A stretch of DNA of 37,741 bases, taken from the IMG/VR virus record IMGVR_UViG_2541047834_000001; one strand, 5' to 3'. Source of the DNA: a virus. Lineage: Duplodnaviria > Heunggongvirae > Uroviricota > Caudoviricetes. Of the stretch, positions 208 to 35,824 are shown piece after piece. Under the pieces are notes generated by a model that saw nothing but the letters and a program-made list of their open reading frames with translations, was not told the DNA's origin and did not search any database. Each line of letters starts with the position of its first letter. Within the stretch, counting starts at the first letter, position 1. The position numbers and the translations under genes are program-made.

Positions 208-1458
208 GTGCTTACCGATACAAAATTAAAGAACCTCAAGCCACAGGACAAACTGTACAAAGTTTCCGATCGTGACGGGCTGTATGTAGCTGTGCTTACG
301 TCAGGTACGGTCTCGTTTCGCTATGACTACCGTATCAACGGTCGCCGCGAAACACTGGTAATCGGGCAGTATGGGCGTGACGGTATCAGCCTGGCAGAAG
401 CGCGAGAAGAACTGATTGCTGCAAAGAAGCTGCTTAAAGCAGGCCAGTCACCGGCTGCGGCTAAACGTGACGGTATCAAAAAGATTCGTGGTGCCGAGAC
501 GTTTGCGGTACATACCGACAGTTATATGAAACACGTCATCCTGGCTGACAGTACCCGCGCAATGAAACAGGCGGTGATCGACCGTGACATACTTCCGACT
601 CTTGGCAATAAAATGATGGCTGAAATTACCACATCGATGGTTCGTGATTTGTGTGACCGGATTGTCGAACGCGGTGGCCGGGCAACAGCAGTGCAGGCCA
701 GGGAGATCATCAGTAGCGTATACCGTCACGCCAATGACCGTGGTCATGGTTTGTTTAATCCTGCGGCTGACATTAAACCTTCGTCTATCGCCATATTTAA
801 ACCACGAGAGCGAACACTGACACCAGAAGAAATTGGCCTGTTCTTCCGCACGCTGGATGCCATTGGTGCTATGGGCACTATGAAAATGGCTTTAAAACTG
901 GTGCTTATCACTATGGTTCGTAAGGGCGAATTCACCAATGCAACGTGGGATGAAATAGATTTTAAAAAATGGACATGGACAATTCCTCCAGACCGCATGA
1001 AGGGAAGCCGGGCGCACGTTATTTACCTGCCTAAACAGGCACAGGATATATTGGTCGGGTTGCAGATGTGCGCTGGTGGAAGTGAATATCTGGTTCCTGG
1101 TCGTTACAATTTCCGGAAGCCATTATCTAATGCCGCGCTAAACTCTCTGATCGACAGAACGGTGAAAATAATAAATGAAGATGGTGAGCATATTCAGGAC
1201 TTCACTGTACATGATATGCGCCGTACAGCCAGTACGTTGTTGCATGAGGCTGGTTATCCTTCAGACTGGATTGAAAAGGCTCTGGCACATGAGCAGAAAG
1301 GTGTGCGCGCCGTATATAACAAAGCGGAATACGCCAGACAGCGCGCCTACATGTTGCAGCAGTGGGCCGATATGATTGATTCATGGATTGACGGGGAGCA
1401 TACGGATCTGATTCCGTTCTCCCCGTCGAAGTTTGAGAAGTGGATGGCGGGGGAATAA
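208..1458 (+). CDS. int: Tyrosine site-specific integrase (P4-type phage integrase family)
   Basis: 416-aa ORF next to attL; N-terminal arm-binding-like region (YVAV..FRYDYRINGRRE) and C-terminal catalytic region with HDMRRT (HxxR) and RAVYNKAEY (Tyr nucleophile region). Confidence 0.9.
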   Translation: MLTDTKLKNLKPQDKLYKVSDRDGLYVAVLTSGTVSFRYDYRINGRRETLVIGQYGRDGISLAEAREELIAAKKLLKAGQSPAAAKRDGIKKIRGAETFAVHTDSYMKHVILADSTRAMKQAVIDRDILPTLGNKMMAEITTSMVRDLCDRIVERGGRATAVQAREIISSVYRHANDRGHGLFNPAADIKPSSIAIFKPRERTLTPEEIGLFFRTLDAIGAMGTMKMALKLVLITMVRKGEFTNATWDEIDFKKWTWTIPPDRMKGSRAHVIYLPKQAQDILVGLQMCAGGSEYLVPGRYNFRKPLSNAALNSLIDRTVKIINEDGEHIQDFTVHDMRRTASTLLHEAGYPSDWIEKALAHEQKGVRAVYNKAEYARQRAYMLQQWADMIDSWIDGEHTDLIPFSPSKFEKWMAGE

Positions 1459-5306: not shown

Positions 5307-5891
5307 TTATTGTTTGTTTTTTTCGTTCTGGTTGATGACAAATTCAATGTAACTTTCGATCTTTGCTTTCTCGGTTTCGGGTAACAATGCGTAGCGCGAG
5401 CGGTCATAGTTGATGGTCGCAGGGTCGTGCGGGTGAATCAGTAATTCATAGCCGTGACGCCCGAATGCGGATGCAACATTCTCCAGGGTGGAAATGGAAA
5501 CGCTGACCTCATTGTTTAACAGGCGGCTGATTGTCACCTGGGCGACGCCGGATGCGCGGTGAAGTTTTCCCTGTGTTGAAAGGTCGCGGCTTTCGCTCAT
5601 CCAGCGTTCCAGGTTGTGAGCCGCCAGCTGACCAATGTCGCTTGGGCCGACAGGCTGAAAACCTTCCTGAGAAAGCGAGCGATCGATATCAAGCCAGTTA
5701 CGGGGTTTATTGGCGGCAGCTTCAATTTTTCGCGCAACCTGGTCGCCGATAACCTTCTTGCCAAGAGCCCAGCGGTTTACCAGATTTGCCTGAGTTCCAA
5801 GTTTTTCTGCCATCCGCGTCTGAACACCATTGAATTCACGGTCGATCAAGTCGTTGAGATTTTGCCTGCGGACGTCCTGGATACTTTTCAT
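5307..5891 (-). CDS. Putative immunity repressor with two HTH (XRE-like) domains
   Basis: 194 aa; two helix-turn-helix-like segments (TRMAEKLGTQANLVNRWALGKK and ASGVAQVTISRLLNNEVSVSISTLENVA); divergent from a Cro-like gene across an operator-rich intergenic region. Confidence 0.65.
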   Translation of the reverse strand: MKSIQDVRRQNLNDLIDREFNGVQTRMAEKLGTQANLVNRWALGKKVIGDQVARKIEAAANKPRNWLDIDRSLSQEGFQPVGPSDIGQLAAHNLERWMSESRDLSTQGKLHRASGVAQVTISRLLNNEVSVSISTLENVASAFGRHGYELLIHPHDPATINYDRSRYALLPETEKAKIESYIEFVINQNEKNKQ

Positions 5892-6045: not shown

Positions 6046-6276
6046 ATGAGCGATAACGGACATTTCGATTTCAAAAAGCACTGGCTTGCACTTACTCCGG
6101 ATGAGCGTGAAGCCTTCGCACAGGAAGCCGGAACGACGAGTCATTATATCCAGACTCACTTAACAGGTAAGCGCAAAATGCCAGGTAAAGTATTGATGAA
6201 TGGGCTTTTTAAAGCCTGTAAAACAAGACAATGGTTGCGCTCAAAAGCAGAACTGGCATACTTCTTCTACTCATGA
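6046..6276 (+). CDS. Cro / YdaS-like HTH regulator
   Basis: 76 aa; TSHYIQTHLTGKRKMPGKVL resembles the Cro/YdaS family; divergent to the repressor. Confidence 0.65.
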   Translation: MSDNGHFDFKKHWLALTPDEREAFAQEAGTTSHYIQTHLTGKRKMPGKVLMNGLFKACKTRQWLRSKAELAYFFYS

Positions 6277-6298
6277 TATCCAGCTACAACCCTCTGTA

Positions 6299-6320
6299 GA
6301 CCGCCACCCGGCGGTCTTTT
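6299..6320 (+). terminator. Rho-independent terminator (tR1-like) after cro-like gene
   Basis: GACCGCC-ACCC-GGCGGTC hairpin followed by TTTT. Confidence 0.65.
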
Positions 6321-6331
6321 CATATCTATTC

Positions 6332-6346
6332 GTACCTCAAAGGTAA
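6332..6346. promoter_or_regulatory. Operator-like palindrome gTACC-TCAAA-GGTAA
   Basis: One mismatch; just after cro terminator. Confidence 0.4.
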
Positions 6347-6426
6347 TAAAAAACCAAATGTGGTTGATCTTTTTTTTGTGTCAGCACAAAATGACCGTAA
6401 TCCCAATACCAATAACAGGGCTTACC

Positions 6427-8245: not shown

Positions 8246-8270
8246 GCGCGATAGCGCATTTTTTTACGCC
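8246..8270 (+). terminator. Weak terminator-like hairpin after P-like gene
   Basis: GCGC-GATA-GCGC followed by ATTTTTTTA; short stem. Confidence 0.35.
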
Positions 8271-8277
8271 CACGTAA

Positions 8278-8292
8278 TTACCTAGTGGGTAA
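8278..8292. promoter_or_regulatory. Operator-like palindrome ATTACC-TAGTG-GGTAAT
   Basis: Perfect half-sites; downstream of P-like gene. Confidence 0.5.
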
Positions 8293-8339
8293 TAAAATGT
8301 TCTAACGTCTATTGATTTCATGTCTTATGTGGTTTTTAA

Positions 8340-11938: not shown

Positions 11939-11941
11939 TTG

Positions 11942-12226
11942 ATGGACTCCTTCGCGAAATATACGATTATTGACTGGATAGCATTCCTTCAGGTTTTGCT
12001 CATCTGGTTTTATATGGCTTACAGGAGTGGACAGTGGATTGTCAGTGTAGCCTGTAGCAAGGGATGGCGTTGGTGGAACCGAAAGAATAAAAAAGCACTG
12101 GCCTTGGATTCGTTTTACGAAGCGTTCAATCTCAACAGCCTTCAGCCTGGTTCTGTCATTGTAGTCACCACTCAAAGCGGCGTGACGATACAAATTCACA
12201 AGCCAAAGGAGGAAGGTCGTGGCTAA
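11942..12226 (+). CDS. Hypothetical small protein, likely membrane-associated
   Basis: ATG at 11942 with GCAGGAGG RBS; hydrophobic N-terminal segment. Confidence 0.5.
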   Translation: MDSFAKYTIIDWIAFLQVLLIWFYMAYRSGQWIVSVACSKGWRWWNRKNKKALALDSFYEAFNLNSLQPGSVIVVTTQSGVTIQIHKPKEEGRG

Positions 12227-12500
12227 CCTGCAACTTGCCGTTAAAGGTGAATACTTCGATGCCATGATTCGCGGAGAGAAAACGGAAGAGTATCGCTTGT
12301 GTAATGACTACTGGAATAAGCGAATTATGTTACGCGAGTATGACCGCCTGATTATCACAAAGGGATATCCGAAGCGCGACGACTCCAGTCGCAGAATTGA
12401 TGTTCCGTATGGAGGGTATGAAATCAAGACAATCACACATCCGCACTTCGGCGATAAACCGGTAAATGTGTTCGCGATAAAGGTAAATATTGATGGCTAA
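12219..12500 (+). CDS. ASCH / DUF3850-like protein
   Basis: GTG start with AAGGAGGAAGG RBS; LAVKGEYFDAMIRGEKTEEYR resembles the ASCH-like pattern (recalled, unverified). Confidence 0.55.
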   Translation: MANLQLAVKGEYFDAMIRGEKTEEYRLCNDYWNKRIMLREYDRLIITKGYPKRDDSSRRIDVPYGGYEIKTITHPHFGDKPVNVFAIKVNIDG

Positions 12501-12831
12501 ATCAGCAGCAGAGCGCAAAGCCGCTCAGAGAGCCAGACAAGCTGCATCTGGTGTGCGTAAGCTGGAAATTGTGCTTGATGCTCAGGAAATTGAAATGCTG
12601 GAGCGTAACTGTGCCACGCGTCGCCCCGGGCGTGCGCCTTACGAATTTGGTGAGTATATAGCGTTACTGATCCGCCAGGATGATGCACGCGTGCGCGGGC
12701 GTATAAAATCGATCAGCAGAAAACGTTGCGGTAAGTGCGGCGAGAGAGTTCCAGTTAATTCATGCCCGTGCAATGGTGACTCGCAATGCTGGGTGACTAA
12801 AGGCTGGCATGAAACGAAATTAATAGTGTGA
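12493..12831 (+). CDS. Zinc-ribbon protein (CxxC...CxC), candidate late-gene regulator
   Basis: Basic N-terminus, C-terminal RKRCGKCGERVPVNSCPCNGDSQC; last early gene before terminator and terminase genes. Confidence 0.5.
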   Translation: MAKSAAERKAAQRARQAASGVRKLEIVLDAQEIEMLERNCATRRPGRAPYEFGEYIALLIRQDDARVRGRIKSISRKRCGKCGERVPVNSCPCNGDSQCWVTKGWHETKLIV

Positions 12832-12839
12832 CATGTCAC
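12828..12839. promoter_or_regulatory. Perfect 12-bp palindrome GTGACATGTCAC (copy 1)
   Basis: Overlaps stop codon of zinc-ribbon gene; terminator 42 nt downstream. Confidence 0.45.
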
Positions 12840-12880
12840 GAGTAGATTATGCATGATGAATTTGATGTGTTTTGAATACT

Positions 12881-12906
12881 GCCGCCAACTATGGCGGCTT
12901 TATTTT
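12881..12906 (+). terminator. Rho-independent terminator upstream of terminase genes (tR'-like)
   Basis: GCCGCCA-ACTA-TGGCGGC hairpin followed by TTTATTTT. Confidence 0.65.
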
Positions 12907-12917
12907 GCATGGTACTA

Positions 12918-12932
12918 TTACCACAACGGTAA
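12918..12932. promoter_or_regulatory. Operator-like palindrome TTACC-ACAAC-GGTAA before terminase genes
   Basis: Immediately 3' of terminator 12881-12906; followed by second TTACC and GGTtA. Confidence 0.45.
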
Positions 12933-12949
12933 CTATTACCACGGTGGTT

Positions 12950-13546
12950 ATGATGCCTGCTGAACCTAAAACCTATAAACGCAAATCAACGCAATTTAAG
13001 CCGCTCACAGCAATGCAGGAGGCTTATTGCCAGTCATACATCAAAACGCCTGAAAACCAGACTCAGGCAGCGATTAATGCAGGATTCTCCCCAAATACAG
13101 CGGCAGTTAAAGCCAGTGTCATGATGCGCGATGAACGCATTCAAAAACGGATTGCCGAGTTGATGGAGGAGCGCAACAAACGAATGCGCGTCAGTGCTGA
13201 TTACGTTCTCATGCGCCTGGTGGAGATCGACCAGATGGACGTGATCGACATCCTCAACGACGATGGGAGCCTTAAGCCAATCCGCGAGTGGCCGAAAATC
13301 TGGCGCACTACGCTTAGCGGCTTTGATCTGTCATCGACCATCATGAACATGAACGAGGATTCGATAGAGACAATCCTCAAAAAAATTAAATGGCCTGACA
13401 AGGTGAAGAACCTCGAACTGATTGGTAAGCACGTCGACGTCAACGCATTCAAAGAACGCCTGGATGTTAATGTGAATGTGACAATTGCTGATCGCATAGC
13501 AGCAGCCAGGAAGCGACTCAAAGAACGTCAGGATGGTAATCAGTGA
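12950..13546 (+). CDS. Terminase small subunit
   Basis: LTAMQEAYCQSYIKTPENQTQAAINAGFSPNTAAVKASVMMRDERIQKRIAELMEE typical of small terminase subunits; coupled (GTGA) to large subunit; in-frame ORF extends to 12872 but that region contains the terminator. Confidence 0.7.
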   Translation: MMPAEPKTYKRKSTQFKPLTAMQEAYCQSYIKTPENQTQAAINAGFSPNTAAVKASVMMRDERIQKRIAELMEERNKRMRVSADYVLMRLVEIDQMDVIDILNDDGSLKPIREWPKIWRTTLSGFDLSSTIMNMNEDSIETILKKIKWPDKVKNLELIGKHVDVNAFKERLDVNVNVTIADRIAAARKRLKERQDGNQ

Positions 13547-15018
13547 CAGATACAGTGTTATCTCCTGAAGAGCAGTTGATCGAGGATATTGCAGGGTTTA
13601 CTCACGATCCGCTTGGTTATGCCCTCTATGCGTTCCCGTGGGGGGAAGAGGGGACTGAACTGGCACATGCCACCGGTCCACGTCAGTGGCAGGCCGATGC
13701 GTTCCGAGAGATACGTGATCACCTGCAGAATCCAGAGACGCGATATCAGCCGCTTATGCTGGCACGCGCTTCTGGTCACGGTATTGGTAAATCCGCATTC
13801 ATCTCAATGCTGATCAACTGGGGCATGTCCACTTGCGAGGATTGTAAGGTCGTGGTGACCGCCAACACCGACAACCAGCTGCGCACCAAGACATGGCCGG
13901 AAATCATCAAATGGTCGAATCTGGCTATCACGAAAGAGTGGTTCACCTGCACCGCCACGGCGATGTACAGCAATGACCCAGGCCACGACAAGCGCTGGCG
14001 AGCTGACGCAATACCGTGGTCTGAGCACAACACAGAGGCGTTCGCCGGGCTGCACAACGAGCGTAAGCGTATCATCGTGGTATTCGATGAAGCATCCAAC
14101 ATTGCCGATCTGGTGTGGGAGGTAGCAGAGGGTGCGCTGACGGACGAAGACACTGAGATTATCTGGGTGGCATTCGGAAACCCTACACGTAACACCGGGC
14201 GTTTCCGCGAATGTTTCCGCAAATATAAACACCGCTGGAAAACTGCGCAGATTGACAGCCGGACGGTGGAAGGCACTAACAAACAGCAGTTGCAGAAATG
14301 GGTTGATGACTACGGGGAAGACAGCGACTTCGTTAAAATCCGTGTGCGCGGCATATTCCCGGATGCATCTGAATTGCAGTTTATCCCTACCGGCCTTACT
14401 GACGAGGCAATGAAACGGGTGGTAACCGCTGCGCAGGTTGCACATGCTCCGGTGATAATCGGCGTTGACCCGGCATACTCCGGCGTTGATGACGCTGTGA
14501 TATACCTGCGGCAGGGGCTGCACAGTAAGGTGCTATGGACTGGTAACAAGACCACCGACGATCTGATTATGGCGAAGCGTATCGCTGACTTTGAAGACCA
14601 GTATCAGGCTGACGCGGTGTTCATCGACTTCGGTTATGGAACCGGTTTGAAGTCAATCGGTGATGGCTGGGGACGTACATGGCAACTTGTTCCGTTCGGC
14701 GGTGCGTCCACTGACCCGCAGATGCTTAACAAGCGTGGGGAGATGTTCAACTCATGTAAGACATGGCTGAGGCTGGGCGGCATGCTGGATGACCAGGAAA
14801 CTGCAGACGACCTGTCGGCGGCAGAGTACAAAGTTCGTGTGGACGGTAAAATCGTTATCGAACCGAAGGAAGATATCAAAGAGCGTCTTGGGCGTTCTCC
14901 TGGTAAAGGCGATGCGCTACTGCTGACGTTTGCTTTCCCGGTCTCGAAACGCATAAATATACCAGGACAGCAAAGCCAGCAGGGAAGGGCCATAACGGAT
15001 TATGACCCTTATGCTTAA
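13543..15018 (+). CDS. Terminase large subunit
   Basis: 491 aa; Walker A-like ARASGHGIGKS, acidic VVFDEASN motif, C-terminal nuclease-like region. Confidence 0.85.
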   Translation: MTDTVLSPEEQLIEDIAGFTHDPLGYALYAFPWGEEGTELAHATGPRQWQADAFREIRDHLQNPETRYQPLMLARASGHGIGKSAFISMLINWGMSTCEDCKVVVTANTDNQLRTKTWPEIIKWSNLAITKEWFTCTATAMYSNDPGHDKRWRADAIPWSEHNTEAFAGLHNERKRIIVVFDEASNIADLVWEVAEGALTDEDTEIIWVAFGNPTRNTGRFRECFRKYKHRWKTAQIDSRTVEGTNKQQLQKWVDDYGEDSDFVKIRVRGIFPDASELQFIPTGLTDEAMKRVVTAAQVAHAPVIIGVDPAYSGVDDAVIYLRQGLHSKVLWTGNKTTDDLIMAKRIADFEDQYQADAVFIDFGYGTGLKSIGDGWGRTWQLVPFGGASTDPQMLNKRGEMFNSCKTWLRLGGMLDDQETADDLSAAEYKVRVDGKIVIEPKEDIKERLGRSPGKGDALLLTFAFPVSKRINIPGQQSQQGRAITDYDPYA

Positions 15019-15069
15019 TCCGCTGGTGGGGATAATGTCGTTGATATCCTCTGGTGAGGATAAAACAAA

Positions 15070-15095
15070 GCCAGCTCATAGGCTGGCTGTTTGTG
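15070..15095. terminator. Bidirectional terminator between convergent terminase and minus-strand gene
   Basis: GCCAGC-TCATAG-GCTGGC hairpin flanked by AAAACAAA and TGTTTGT. Confidence 0.5.
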
Positions 15096-15104
15096 ACATG
15101 CCAC
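15093..15104. promoter_or_regulatory. Near-palindrome GTGACATGCCAC (copy 2)
   Basis: Adjacent to bidirectional terminator 15070-15095, just 3' of minus-strand gene. Confidence 0.4.
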
Positions 15105-15108
15105 GGTG

Positions 15109-15483
15109 TTATTGCTCGCTTAACTTCTGCTTCAGCAAGTAACCTTCGAGCATCCAGATTTTGTTTACAGCATTCTGCCGGGCAATCTTCCGACCAATTT
15201 CTGCATCAAAGTTTTCCGGGCTTGCACAGGCACTCTCTCCGGTGACGGTGAAGCCATTCTTCAGCACCAGTACGCAGAAAGTGAGAAGGTGCAGAGCATC
15301 AGGGGTGGCTTCGACATAAGGCTCCGGATTATAAATAAGGTCATCTTCTTTAGCCTGGTGGTCACCCTGCGCAGCAGTGAAAAAATGCTCACTGCAAATG
15401 AGGCCTTCAATTTTCTCGGGTGTTACACGCGGTGCCGTTTTGCCTTTCTCAACGATTTCTTTTTCGATTTGCTGGTCGTTCAT
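15109..15483 (-). CDS. Hypothetical phage protein (124 aa); possibly N4 gp49 / Sf6 gp66-like
   Basis: Clean minus-strand ORF co-oriented with the tRNA; family assignment tentative. Confidence 0.55.
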   Translation of the reverse strand: MNDQQIEKEIVEKGKTAPRVTPEKIEGLICSEHFFTAAQGDHQAKEDDLIYNPEPYVEATPDALHLLTFCVLVLKNGFTVTGESACASPENFDAEIGRKIARQNAVNKIWMLEGYLLKQKLSEQ

Positions 15484-15681
15484 AATCTCACCTTAAAAAA
15501 ATGCCCGGCGAACCGGGCGAACTGGAAGCAATGAGTTATGCCTTCCGTGGCTGTACGGGTTTACAGCATGAAGTCATCGCAATGGCGTCCTGCTGTAAAA
15601 AGGGCGGTGATAGTCCTTCAAGGGAAACTATCACCGCCAAGCACCTGGAACTTCTGGCATCACGGTCCTTAGGCGTGATTC

Positions 15682-15758
15682 TGGCGTGGCATGCAGGATT
15701 CGAACCTGCGACCAACCGCTTAGAAGGCGGTTGCTCTGTCCAACTGAGCTAATGCCAC
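15682..15758 (-). tRNA. tRNA-Arg (anticodon UCU, reads AGA)
   Basis: 77-nt cloverleaf on minus strand: acceptor GTGGCAT/ATGCCAC, D-stem GCTC/GAGC, anticodon stem ACCGC/GCGGT with loop CTTCTAA, T-arm GCAGG-TTCGAAT-CCTGC, discriminator G, encoded CCA. Confidence 0.9.
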
Positions 15759-16093: not shown

Positions 16094-16183
16094 TAATTTG
16101 TGCGTTAAATGTCAACTATCTACGATAAATAAATCATATGTGGTTAAATTGGTAATAATTTAATTGCGTACGGAGTCATTGAT

Positions 16184-32357: not shown

Positions 32358-32654
32358 ATGCAAGCTATAGGATTCATTGTTTATATCGTCGTTGGTCTTT
32401 TTCAGTTGGCAGCAATTATGGCTGGGCTTGAATCATGGTGGGGATTGCACTGGATAATTGCAGCCCCCATTGCTTTCATCGTGAGCTATATTCCATTTGT
32501 TGGAGCGATTGTTGGTATGGTTGGCGCTGTGGATGTATGGCGGTGGGAGTGGTGGCAGGCTGGCCTTCTCTTCTTTGGTGGGATCATCTTTGCTATTGTC
32601 TGCGGTGGAATGTCATCATTTTTCGAATGGCTATCATTCAGAAAAGGGACGTGA
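32358..32654 (+). CDS. Trp-rich integral membrane protein (98 aa, about 3 TM)
   Basis: Hydrophobic segments; stop embedded in GTGACATGTCAC palindrome; followed by terminator. Confidence 0.55.
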   Translation: MQAIGFIVYIVVGLFQLAAIMAGLESWWGLHWIIAAPIAFIVSYIPFVGAIVGMVGAVDVWRWEWWQAGLLFFGGIIFAIVCGGMSSFFEWLSFRKGT

Positions 32655-32662
32655 CATGTCAC
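32651..32662. promoter_or_regulatory. Perfect 12-bp palindrome GTGACATGTCAC (copy 3)
   Basis: Overlaps stop codon of membrane-protein gene; terminator hairpin starts 2 nt downstream. Confidence 0.45.
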
Positions 32663-32663
32663 A

Positions 32664-32688
32664 GGCCGCTTTCGCGGCCTTTAAATTT
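32664..32688 (+). terminator. Terminator hairpin GGCCGC-TTTC-GCGGCC + TTTAAATTT
   Basis: Perfect 6-bp GC stem with T-rich tail; between convergent genes. Confidence 0.55.
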
Positions 32689-32962
32689 ACCGGGTTTGTT
32701 TTCGTAATTGTTCGGCACAATAGTCGAGATGTGTTTGCAGATCCTGCATAGACATCTGTGAGCTGGTGACATAGTTAATCAGTGCAGTCAGTTCGGCAAG
32801 TGGGCCATCGACATTAAATCCATCCTTATCGAGATCCCGGAGTAATTTCATCAAGTGCGATCCCTCCACCAGTGACCTGACGCCTCCCGGCGTGTGAATC
32901 CTTTCGGTAAATCCGTCTTCCAGTGGATAGTGATACTGCTGCATCTTATCTTCTCCATGCAA
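32687..32962 (-). CDS. Hypothetical soluble protein (91 aa), reverse-oriented moron with own promoter region
   Basis: Only minus-strand gene in the structural module; upstream intergenic 32963-33139 contains an ATTACC-N5-GGTAAT site. Confidence 0.55.
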   Translation of the reverse strand: MHGEDKMQQYHYPLEDGFTERIHTPGGVRSLVEGSHLMKLLRDLDKDGFNVDGPLAELTALINYVTSSQMSMQDLQTHLDYCAEQLRKQTR

Positions 32963-33020
32963 TAACTGTATATTTATACAGTATCAAATAATTTGTTTGC
33001 TATCCAGCACGTTTTGCAAA

Positions 33021-33035: not shown

Positions 33036-33139
33036 TATCTATTCGTATTCACAGTCTTTCTATCCATATGTGGTTTTTAAGGTAATAGAATAACCAGATA
33101 TGCGGCGCAACGGGTGCTGCGACTATCTGGAGATTTAAC

Positions 33140-35752: not shown

Positions 35753-35766
35753 AACCATAAATGGTT
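35753..35766. promoter_or_regulatory. Palindrome AACCAT-AA-ATGGTT overlapping a -10-like ATAAAT
   Basis: Shares CCAT(T)AAATGG core with 35628-35650; TTGACG 17 bp upstream. Confidence 0.4.
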
Positions 35767-35824
35767 TATTATGCGTAATGCTTTACTGTTCAGGAGGTTG
35801 TTATGCATATAAACGGTGGAAAAC

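Follow-up and report, generated by a model that had tools for sequence, protein, structure and literature searches.

Phages related to epsilon15 are in use for O157 detection and serotype conversion, and the repressor-antirepressor (Rep-Ant) switch described for epsilon15 and SPC32H has become a structural model; to our knowledge, the late-gene control of these phages has not been worked out so far. Here we analyse the early/late junction in a stretch of 37,741 nucleotides (nt) of phage DNA, IMG/VR record IMGVR_UViG_2541047834_000001 (the window, meaning the whole stretch at its full length). Escherichia phage vB_EcoP_PAS61 shares 98% identity with region 12200-13600, and phiV10, TL-2011b, epsilon15 and SPN1S match it progressively more weakly; the sequence thus assigns the window to the temperate epsilon15/phiV10-like podoviruses of the genus Uetakevirus. 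The repressor, anti-repressor and operators of the window all belong to the Rep-Ant switch, from which we found no difference, and the operator, the terminator and the repressor system of the junction are already known from epsilon15 and SPC32H. What appears to be new is a widespread family of predicted ribbon-helix-helix (RHH) proteins with a zinc ribbon, represented here by the last gene of the rightward early operon, together with a matS-like 12-bp palindrome, present once at the stop codon of the gene itself and twice elsewhere in each genome, in copies that in Uetakevirus lie beside terminators.

Two further described systems bear on this locus. The Q/pR'-qut-tR' arrangement of lambda, including its Q82 and Q21 types, likewise has a zinc protein encoded by the last early gene before the late genes and an intrinsic terminator between them, and the first-pass annotation of the window had read the junction in this way. 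The other is MatP, the organiser of the enterobacterial Ter region, which is an RHH protein with few dispersed sites per replicon; its site matS, GTGAC[AG]N[TC]GTCAC (PMC3603311), has arms identical to those of the phage palindrome. We propose that a dimeric RHH-zinc-ribbon protein would target the palindrome and act at boundaries between transcription units, with the terminase genes served by a separate promoter, and we regard this proposal, taken as a whole, as evenly balanced between right and wrong.

The PHROG 536 family and the palindrome at its stop codon

The open reading frame (ORF) at 12490-12831 opens with TTG and encodes 113 residues; the neighbouring ATG at 12493 gives 112 residues, the length annotated in relatives, and seems the likelier start. 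The basic protein with a C-terminal cysteine cluster described in the first pass is present, with 23 lysines and arginines against 13 acidic residues and with the motifs CGKCG at 79-83 and CPCNGDSQC at 91-99. It is assigned to PHROG 536, which carries the label "transcriptional regulator" (E = 1.6e-54); no Pfam family was found for the 112-residue protein, and a sequence search returned no relative in the PDB. An exhaustive profile search collected 211 family clusters at 50% identity, most of them 100-135 residues long and aligned over their full length. In an alignment of 71 diverse members, taken as representatives at 50% identity, C79 and C82 are invariant and R8, R13, L36, E54, L59, P87, G95 and C99 nearly so; a fourth cysteine lies in a "GC" motif near position 91, and the pattern CxxC...C...C is kept across the 71 members.

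Structure prediction, which the first-pass annotation had named as a check on a Q-like protein, returned an RHH core and a zinc ribbon, not a Q fold. AlphaFold2 run on the 71-sequence alignment reached a predicted local distance difference test score (pLDDT) of 93.6, where an earlier model from a shallow alignment of 20 sequences had been unusable (pLDDT 61.8). From its N-terminus the model runs through a basic helix (5-19) and an extended stretch into helices 30-42 and 52-75, then into a segment resembling a zinc ribbon and a last short helix, and it contains the beta-strand, helix, helix core of the RHH (CopG/Arc/MetJ) superfamily. Among profiles of that superfamily, RHH_5, RHH_1 and RepB-RCR_reg are each matched by only one or two of the 71 members (E = 0.01-0.07), and NCBIfam YbfE scored E = 0.052. 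Foldseek searches of the PDB and BFVD added nothing and found no Q protein. No Q family (Pfam Antiterm/Phage_antitermQ and relatives) was matched at E <= 1 by the window protein or at E <= 0.1 by the 71 members, nor did any of these sequences match the Pfam profile of the Ogr_Delta zinc finger. Run against PDB sequences, the family profile scored marginally with YbiI (E = 0.014) and TraR (E = 0.025), in the zinc finger of each and within a range of 0.014-0.03, and shares with DksA, TraR and YbiI a long helix followed by CxxCG-x2-(I/L)P...G-x3-C; unlike those proteins it has no second CxxC knuckle anywhere in the family alignment, its aligned helix is part of the RHH core, and none of the 71 members matches Pfam zf-dskA_traR. 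As modelled, the protein adds a zinc ribbon to an RHH DNA-binding fold; it stands outside any Q or Ogr family and very probably binds both zinc and DNA. It differs also from the P22 Arc and Mnt repressors, CopG and the MazE/ParD antitoxins, whose operators lie at promoters upstream of the genes they regulate, whereas here the candidate site lies at the 3' end of its own gene and near terminators, and a zinc ribbon and an N-terminal basic helix are added to the fold.

The palindrome GTGACATGTCAC, pointed out in the first pass and confirmed here, overlaps the TGA stop of the gene, and two exact copies occur in the window, at 12828 and 32651. The association between gene and palindrome extends well beyond this phage. 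Across 74 loci from prophages of different Enterobacterales species, whose proteins are 37-81% identical to the query, GTGAC-NN-GTCAC falls between -15 and +100 nt of the stop in 42, most often overlapping it, where by our estimate chance would supply about 0.01 such loci; at least one copy is present in 63 of the 74 (stretches of up to 20 kb), for which we calculate a chance of about 0.02 per locus. The first G of the palindrome is kept regardless of the last codon, and past the palindrome the loci are unrelated, continuing into LexA-box promoters, terminators or other genes. Four Uetakeviruses (the window, epsilon15, SPN1S and Tyrion) have three copies each, at equivalent positions with diverged flanks. 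The unrelated myovirus ZF40 also has three, one of them 3 nt past the stop of gp22, and no other 12-bp palindrome occurs more than once in that genome; N15 has GTGACTGGTCAC three times, one copy overlapping the stop of gene 46; and two distant homologs have TGTGACTGGTCACA and TGTGACGGTCACA at or shortly past their stop codons. Starting from the site, 46 of 120 arbitrary IMG/VR stretches with the 14-mer GTGACATGTCACGG, all of them partial contigs, encode a family member, and a further 10 represent the site that follows terL in Uetakevirus. These comparisons identify gene and palindrome as a co-inherited pair, and the protein most likely binds at the palindrome. We found no mention of GTGACATGTCAC, of the protein-palindrome pairing or of matS- or MatP-like phage elements in the searchable literature. 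In several prophages outside Uetakevirus (L095, L096, L101, L108, L118, L151, L152) the gene and palindrome are followed by a LexA-box promoter (e.g. TACTGTTTAAATGTACAGTA) that drives the next gene.

Co-inheritance might also arise if the palindrome were the site of a host factor or another phage factor, or a recombination or module-boundary sequence, with the gene linked to it by inheritance of a cassette alone. Homology between phages does break exactly past the palindrome, and the palindrome is missing in some family members; distant extra copies nevertheless accompany the gene in four unrelated phage backgrounds. The 64 of the 120 IMG/VR stretches that show no family gene in the part examined would fit a cassette as well, although these stretches are only partial contigs. 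The centre of the palindrome, moreover, tracks the protein subfamily: the window type has AT, N15 and L091 have TG, and L092 has just one G, as expected from co-evolution of a protein with its site. We consider cassette inheritance alone quite unlikely, and continue with the palindrome as the probable site of the protein.

The resemblance to matS raises a different possibility, that the protein is a MatP-like organiser without a role in transcription, which would bridge the three sites to loop or condense phage DNA or would interfere with host MatP at matS. The arms of the two sites are the same, about three dispersed sites per genome occur in three unrelated phage types, and the basic helix ahead of the beta-strand resembles, by inspection only, the RARRKRH segment of MatP. 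The phage site nevertheless has a spacer of 2 nt in place of 3, making it 12 bp against 13 bp, and the window has no 13-bp matS; an earlier report of matS avoidance by prophages used the 13-bp pattern, which 12-mers would have escaped. Homology between the proteins was not detectable: comparing the family profile by hhalign with E. coli MatP, represented by a single sequence since the MatP homologs retrieved were near-identical only, gave a probability of 0.4% (E = 0.16), and none of the 71 members matched the MatP Pfam domains PF06303 and PF17414. Nor does the protein have the four-helix bundle and the coiled coil of MatP, their place being taken by the zinc ribbon, and in contrast to MatP the protein is phage-encoded, with one site at its own stop codon. 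We treat the matS resemblance as a lead and not as family membership, and judge a purely organising role unlikely.

The junction with the terminase genes and the prophage repressor operators

The strong terminator reported downstream of the gene in the first pass holds up (-16.2 kcal/mol, z = -4.25, with none of 200 shuffles folding as well), and the terminase genes terS and terL follow it as described. The AT-rich stretch ahead of the terminator, called promoter-like in the first pass, is at 12840-12876 the residue of a 70-residue phrog_1541 gene, which about 25 of 80 relatives still have whole (IMG/VR loci whose protein is 97-100% identical to that of the window), and the window retains the ribosome-binding site and ATG of that gene fused to its last six codons. 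The resulting mini-ORF stops 4 nt ahead of the terminator stem. In other genera (L098, L106) its counterparts downstream of the homologous gene read MTDEFDGF-stop and MLDEFDGF-stop, with synonymous differences, and in some close relatives the mini-ORF is frameshifted. It may be no more than what a deletion left behind, or it may be translated as a leader and so influence whether the terminator hairpin forms. Among known RNAs, the region 12400-13100 gave nothing above threshold, the only match being a sub-threshold one to the Hfq-binding small RNA rseX at 12820-12905 on the plus strand, from the palindrome to the end of the terminator (29 bits where the gathering score is 50, E = 0.17); the terminator probably accounts for this match.

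Directly after the T-tract stands the sequence TGgTACTAT, whose final base is also the first base of the operator that follows. The pattern TGnTAnnAT is kept in all 95 loci with the terminator-operator arrangement. The n position varies among them (G/T/A), as does the third position of the hexamer (TACTAT, TATTAT, TAGTAT), and the fourth position varies only in L142 (TATGAT), whose terminator differs. Since this is the variation expected of an extended -10 element, terS-terL most likely has a repressor-controlled promoter of its own downstream of the terminator, and the terminator would therefore simply close the early operon.

The TTACC-N5-GGTAA site and the direct repeat noted next to it in the first pass are both present, and Rep operators account for both. 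Allowing one mismatch, the window has 12 copies of TTACC-N5-GGTAA where 0.53 are expected and none of 100 shuffles reaches 12, at positions 151, 5173, 5235, 5947, 5995, 6332, 8278, 8340, 12918, 12936, 16079 and 33021. They lie on both flanks of the repressor gene, at pL-like and pR-like promoters, past the post-cro terminator and before rusA, with two before terS, one each before the portal operon and the tailspike, and one near int. Epsilon15 and SPN1S have the motif at matching places, and the GenBank record of epsilon15 carries the annotation "protein_bind: repressor" there, among others at the sites before terS, gp3/portal and the tailspike gene. This pattern of occurrence identifies TTACC-N5-GGTAA as the prophage repressor operator, part of the known epsilon15/SPC32H system. 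The direct repeat ACTATTACCAC, at 12914-12924 and 12932-12942, exists because two adjacent Rep operators have their left halves in common, and on this ground the repeats were rejected as a pac or activator site. A terminator is followed by an operator within about 15 nt both after cro (6298-6346) and before terS, and a weaker terminator-like hairpin precedes the operator ahead of rusA (about 8250-8292). As one or two operators precede nearly every unit and the terminator-operator layout recurs, the layout suggests that this phage does without a transcriptional cascade and that its units would each be directly repressed and insulated from their neighbours.

A second motif, CATATGTGGTT(T), stands ahead of the post-cro, rusA, portal, tailspike and lysis units, 26-59 nt past the operators there (6355-6366, 8324-8335, 16135-16146, 33065-33076 and 35756-35767). 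It has 11 matches with at most two mismatches against 3.8 expected, is kept in epsilon15, SPN1S and Tyrion, and is placed at the spacer or extended -10 position of promoters that often have a poor -35; terS has no such motif in front of it. As a site for the 112-residue protein CATATGTGGTT was rejected, because it also precedes the early units containing the gene and because the comparative evidence favours the palindrome. The leftward early operon includes a PerC-family activator-like gene (E = 1.6e-6) and an AlpA-like gene (2296-2595 and 2705-2953, both on the minus strand), and the PerC-like gene is another candidate regulator for promoters with a poor -35.

Homologs of the protein occupy comparable places in very different phages. 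Gene 46 of N15, gp22 of ZF40 (67% identity), the homologs in P2-like Yersinia phages, which follow gpA, and the one in Vibrio K233, which precedes lysis and terminase genes, all close an early operon or lie close to its end; metagenomic homologs stand directly before lysis-terminase operons (L091, L093), in the gap between terL and portal (L092) and beside an integrase (L090). The frequent placement just before late genes is noteworthy, and it is a point in favour of a small Q-like antiterminator or activator that would act at a promoter upstream of the terminator and cause read-through of 12881-12906 into the terminase genes. Such a placement is found in the window, epsilon15, Vibrio K233, L091 and L093, and none of the window's genes was recognisable as a homolog of Q, N or Ogr. 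N15, ZF40 and the prophage L090, on the other hand, co-encode a recognisable Q-like protein with the homolog, which weighs against the family being a Q substitute, and the family is also found in P2-like phages. The weak profile matches noted above are to the zinc fingers of TraR and YbiI, two proteins that bind RNA polymerase, and would fit a Q-like role.

The promoter that such a regulator would need was less persuasive. The palindrome does offer a -35-like hexamer, GTGACA, which in the window is followed after 18 bp by CATGAT, a 9/12 consensus match and the only trace of the promoter-like stretch claimed in the first pass; epsilon15-type genomes have a different match, with TAAATT after 17 bp. 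This element is not conserved, being absent from L098, L099, L115, L142 and from the relatives with an intact extra ORF, palindrome copies 2 and 3 have no such partner, and the scanned region has 9 such 9/12 matches where its shuffles lead one to expect 15.2. As a conserved element, a promoter ahead of the terminator was accordingly rejected, the region being an intact ORF in about 25 of 80 relatives. Of the lambda parallel, then, the last early gene, its zinc-binding character and the terminator before the late genes stand; the analogy with Q and tR' does not, given the want of a conserved upstream promoter, the assignment of the operator to Rep, the likely terS promoter downstream of the terminator with its conserved promoter-like element and Rep operators, and both the lack of similarity to Q and the coexistence with it. 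The window protein further differs from lambda Q in its predicted RHH fold, in a candidate site that recurs at three terminators where Q has one promoter, and in a late operon that would have its own repressor-controlled promoter. We regard a Q-like mode of action as improbable.

Palindromes at transcription-unit boundaries

The positions of the palindrome point to a relation with intrinsic terminators. In Uetakeviruses each copy lies 0-45 nt from the hairpin of an intrinsic terminator, with the T-tract always on the far side of the hairpin. Copy 1 precedes the terminator of the early operon by 24-42 nt. Between copy 2 and the terminator hairpin of a leftward unit convergent on terL there are 4-5 nt, an arrangement common to the window, epsilon15, SPN1S, Tyrion and seven further prophages, and copy 3 is 0-3 nt ahead of the terminator of the structural operon, where that operon and ant converge. 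Among 105 collected palindromes, 33 have a terminator-like structure within 90 nt, in the order palindrome, hairpin, T-tract in 32 of the 33 (24 of 25 distinct hairpins), and palindromes are about four times likelier than random positions to be near such a structure (33% against 7.6%). Since the probable site is physically associated with intrinsic terminators, a role of the protein in transcription at the early/late junction is possible.

An effect at transcription-unit boundaries is our leading guess as to function. An RHH dimer carrying a basic helix on the N-terminal side and a Cys4 zinc ribbon on the C-terminal side would target GTGAC-AT-GTCAC, whose three copies mark three unit ends, those of the rightward early operon, of the leftward unit meeting terL and of the structural operon. 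Bound there, the protein may act on transcription either by reinforcing termination as a roadblock or by allowing read-through. For polymerase travelling in one direction the bound protein would stand just ahead of a terminator, which fits control of read-through, and for polymerase travelling in the opposite direction it would stand just past a hairpin without a T-tract, which fits roadblock-assisted termination between convergent units. In this scheme the terminator 12881-12906 would simply end the early operon, and terS-terL would be transcribed from the extended -10 promoter at 12910-12918, overlapped by the two Rep operators, a mode of control unlike that of lambda Q.

Several observations weigh against this boundary model. 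The link between protein and palindrome is purely comparative, and some family members (Vibrio K233, L093) have no GTGAC palindrome near the gene. By our criteria 72 of the 105 palindromes lack a terminator in the surrounding 90 nt, and the 70-residue gene stands between copy 1 and the terminator in about 25 of 80 close relatives. The association with terminators is not universal, because lambdoid prophages and ZF40 have a copy inside the 3' end of a cII-like gene and N15 has one inside repA. The conservation of A5 and T6 in the proposed -10 hexamer is not independent evidence for a promoter, as both are also operator bases, and the scheme gives no account of late timing. The copies embedded in cII-like genes occupy an equal position in four genomes, prophages of Providencia, Xenorhabdus and Rouxiella alongside ZF40, directly before replication genes (L141 6138, L136 6914, L155 5732, and ZF40, L094, 7622).

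Gene layout and implications for phage regulation

The window begins with the integrase, the leftward early operon, the repressor, the cro-like gene, O-like and P-like replication genes and RusA. Several genes whose labels name no function lie between RusA and DUF4752, followed by the ASCH-like gene, the gene for the 112-residue protein, terS and terL. Beyond terL come a leftward unit with a tRNA-Arg, the operon from portal to injection proteins, ant on the minus strand, the tailspike and the lysis genes. The leftward unit between terL and the portal operon holds a gene of the N4 gp49/Sf6 gp66 family (15109-15483, minus strand), the tRNA-Arg(tct) (15682-15758, minus strand) and a long hairpin at 15603-15638. 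The anti-repressor gene is preceded by a perfect LexA box, CTGTATATTTATACAG, at 32966-32981, and is convergent with the structural operon at palindrome copy 3. Coordinates are collected in Table 1.

Table 1. Coordinates of genes, sites and terminators of the window
Feature	Position	Strand	Remark
Integrase	208-1458		
Prophage repressor (Rep)	5307-5891	-	E = 4e-42 to SPC32H repressor, PDB 5D50_A; operators both sides
cro-like gene	6046-6276		
DUF4752 gene	11939-12226		
ASCH-like gene	12219-12500		
Gene for 112-residue protein, predicted RHH with C-terminal Cys4 zinc ribbon	12493-12831	+	PHROG 536; epsilon15 gp49/N15 gp46 family
Palindrome copy 1, GTGACATGTCAC	12828-12839		Probable binding site
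8-codon mini-ORF, MHDEFDVF-stop	12850-12876	+	phrog_1541 remnant
Intrinsic terminator of rightward early operon	Stem 12881-12898 (7-bp, G+C-rich), T-tract 12899-12906	+	Rho-independent terminator annotated at equivalent epsilon15 position
Putative extended -10 of terS-terL, TGgTACTAT	12910-12918	+	Predicted start near 12925
Rep operator, TTACCACAACGGTAA	12918-12932		TTACC-N5-GGTAA; equivalent epsilon15 site annotated 'protein_bind repressor'
Second Rep operator, TTACCACGGTGGTTA	12936-12950		One mismatch; overlaps terS ribosome-binding site
Terminase small subunit (terS)	12953-13546	+	Pfam Terminase_2, E = 1.1e-29; start per TL-2011b annotation
Terminase large subunit (terL)	13543-15018	+	
Hairpin (leftward-unit terminator), 4 nt, palindrome copy 2, GTGACATGCCAC	15069-15104 (hairpin 15069-15088, palindrome 15093-15104)		Palindrome with one mismatch
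Palindrome copy 3, terminator GGCCGCTTTCGCGGCC, T-tract	32651-32688 (palindrome 32651-32662)	+	Overlaps stop of last structural-operon gene
SPC32H-type anti-repressor gene (ant)	32687-32962	-	5D50_E, E = 5e-47

The broadest reading of these data is that PHROG 536 and GTGAC-NN-GTCAC form an unrecognised, widespread phage system, in which the site-specific protein, a product of the last early gene, would be loaded at its own gene and at two other places and would steer RNA polymerase at hairpins by factor-dependent, possibly bidirectional, termination or antitermination. Such a system would set the early, packaging and structural boundaries in phages without Q, such as the Uetakeviruses, and its matS-like arms might engage host MatP. 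We put this forward as a conjecture that is, at present, doubtful.

In summary, our analysis replaces a lambda-style guess about the early/late junction of this phage with a testable map, in which operators stand at the units, terminators lie between them and the protein-palindrome pair is found at three ends. The sharing of the site by Uetakeviruses, lambdoid prophages, N15-like plasmid prophages and ZF40 offers one candidate DNA target for a protein family that has no Pfam entry. If the palindrome-bound protein alters termination, phages would encode a boundary factor of a new kind, and if the protein interacts with matS and MatP, it would provide a link from phage infection to the organisation of the host chromosome terminus.

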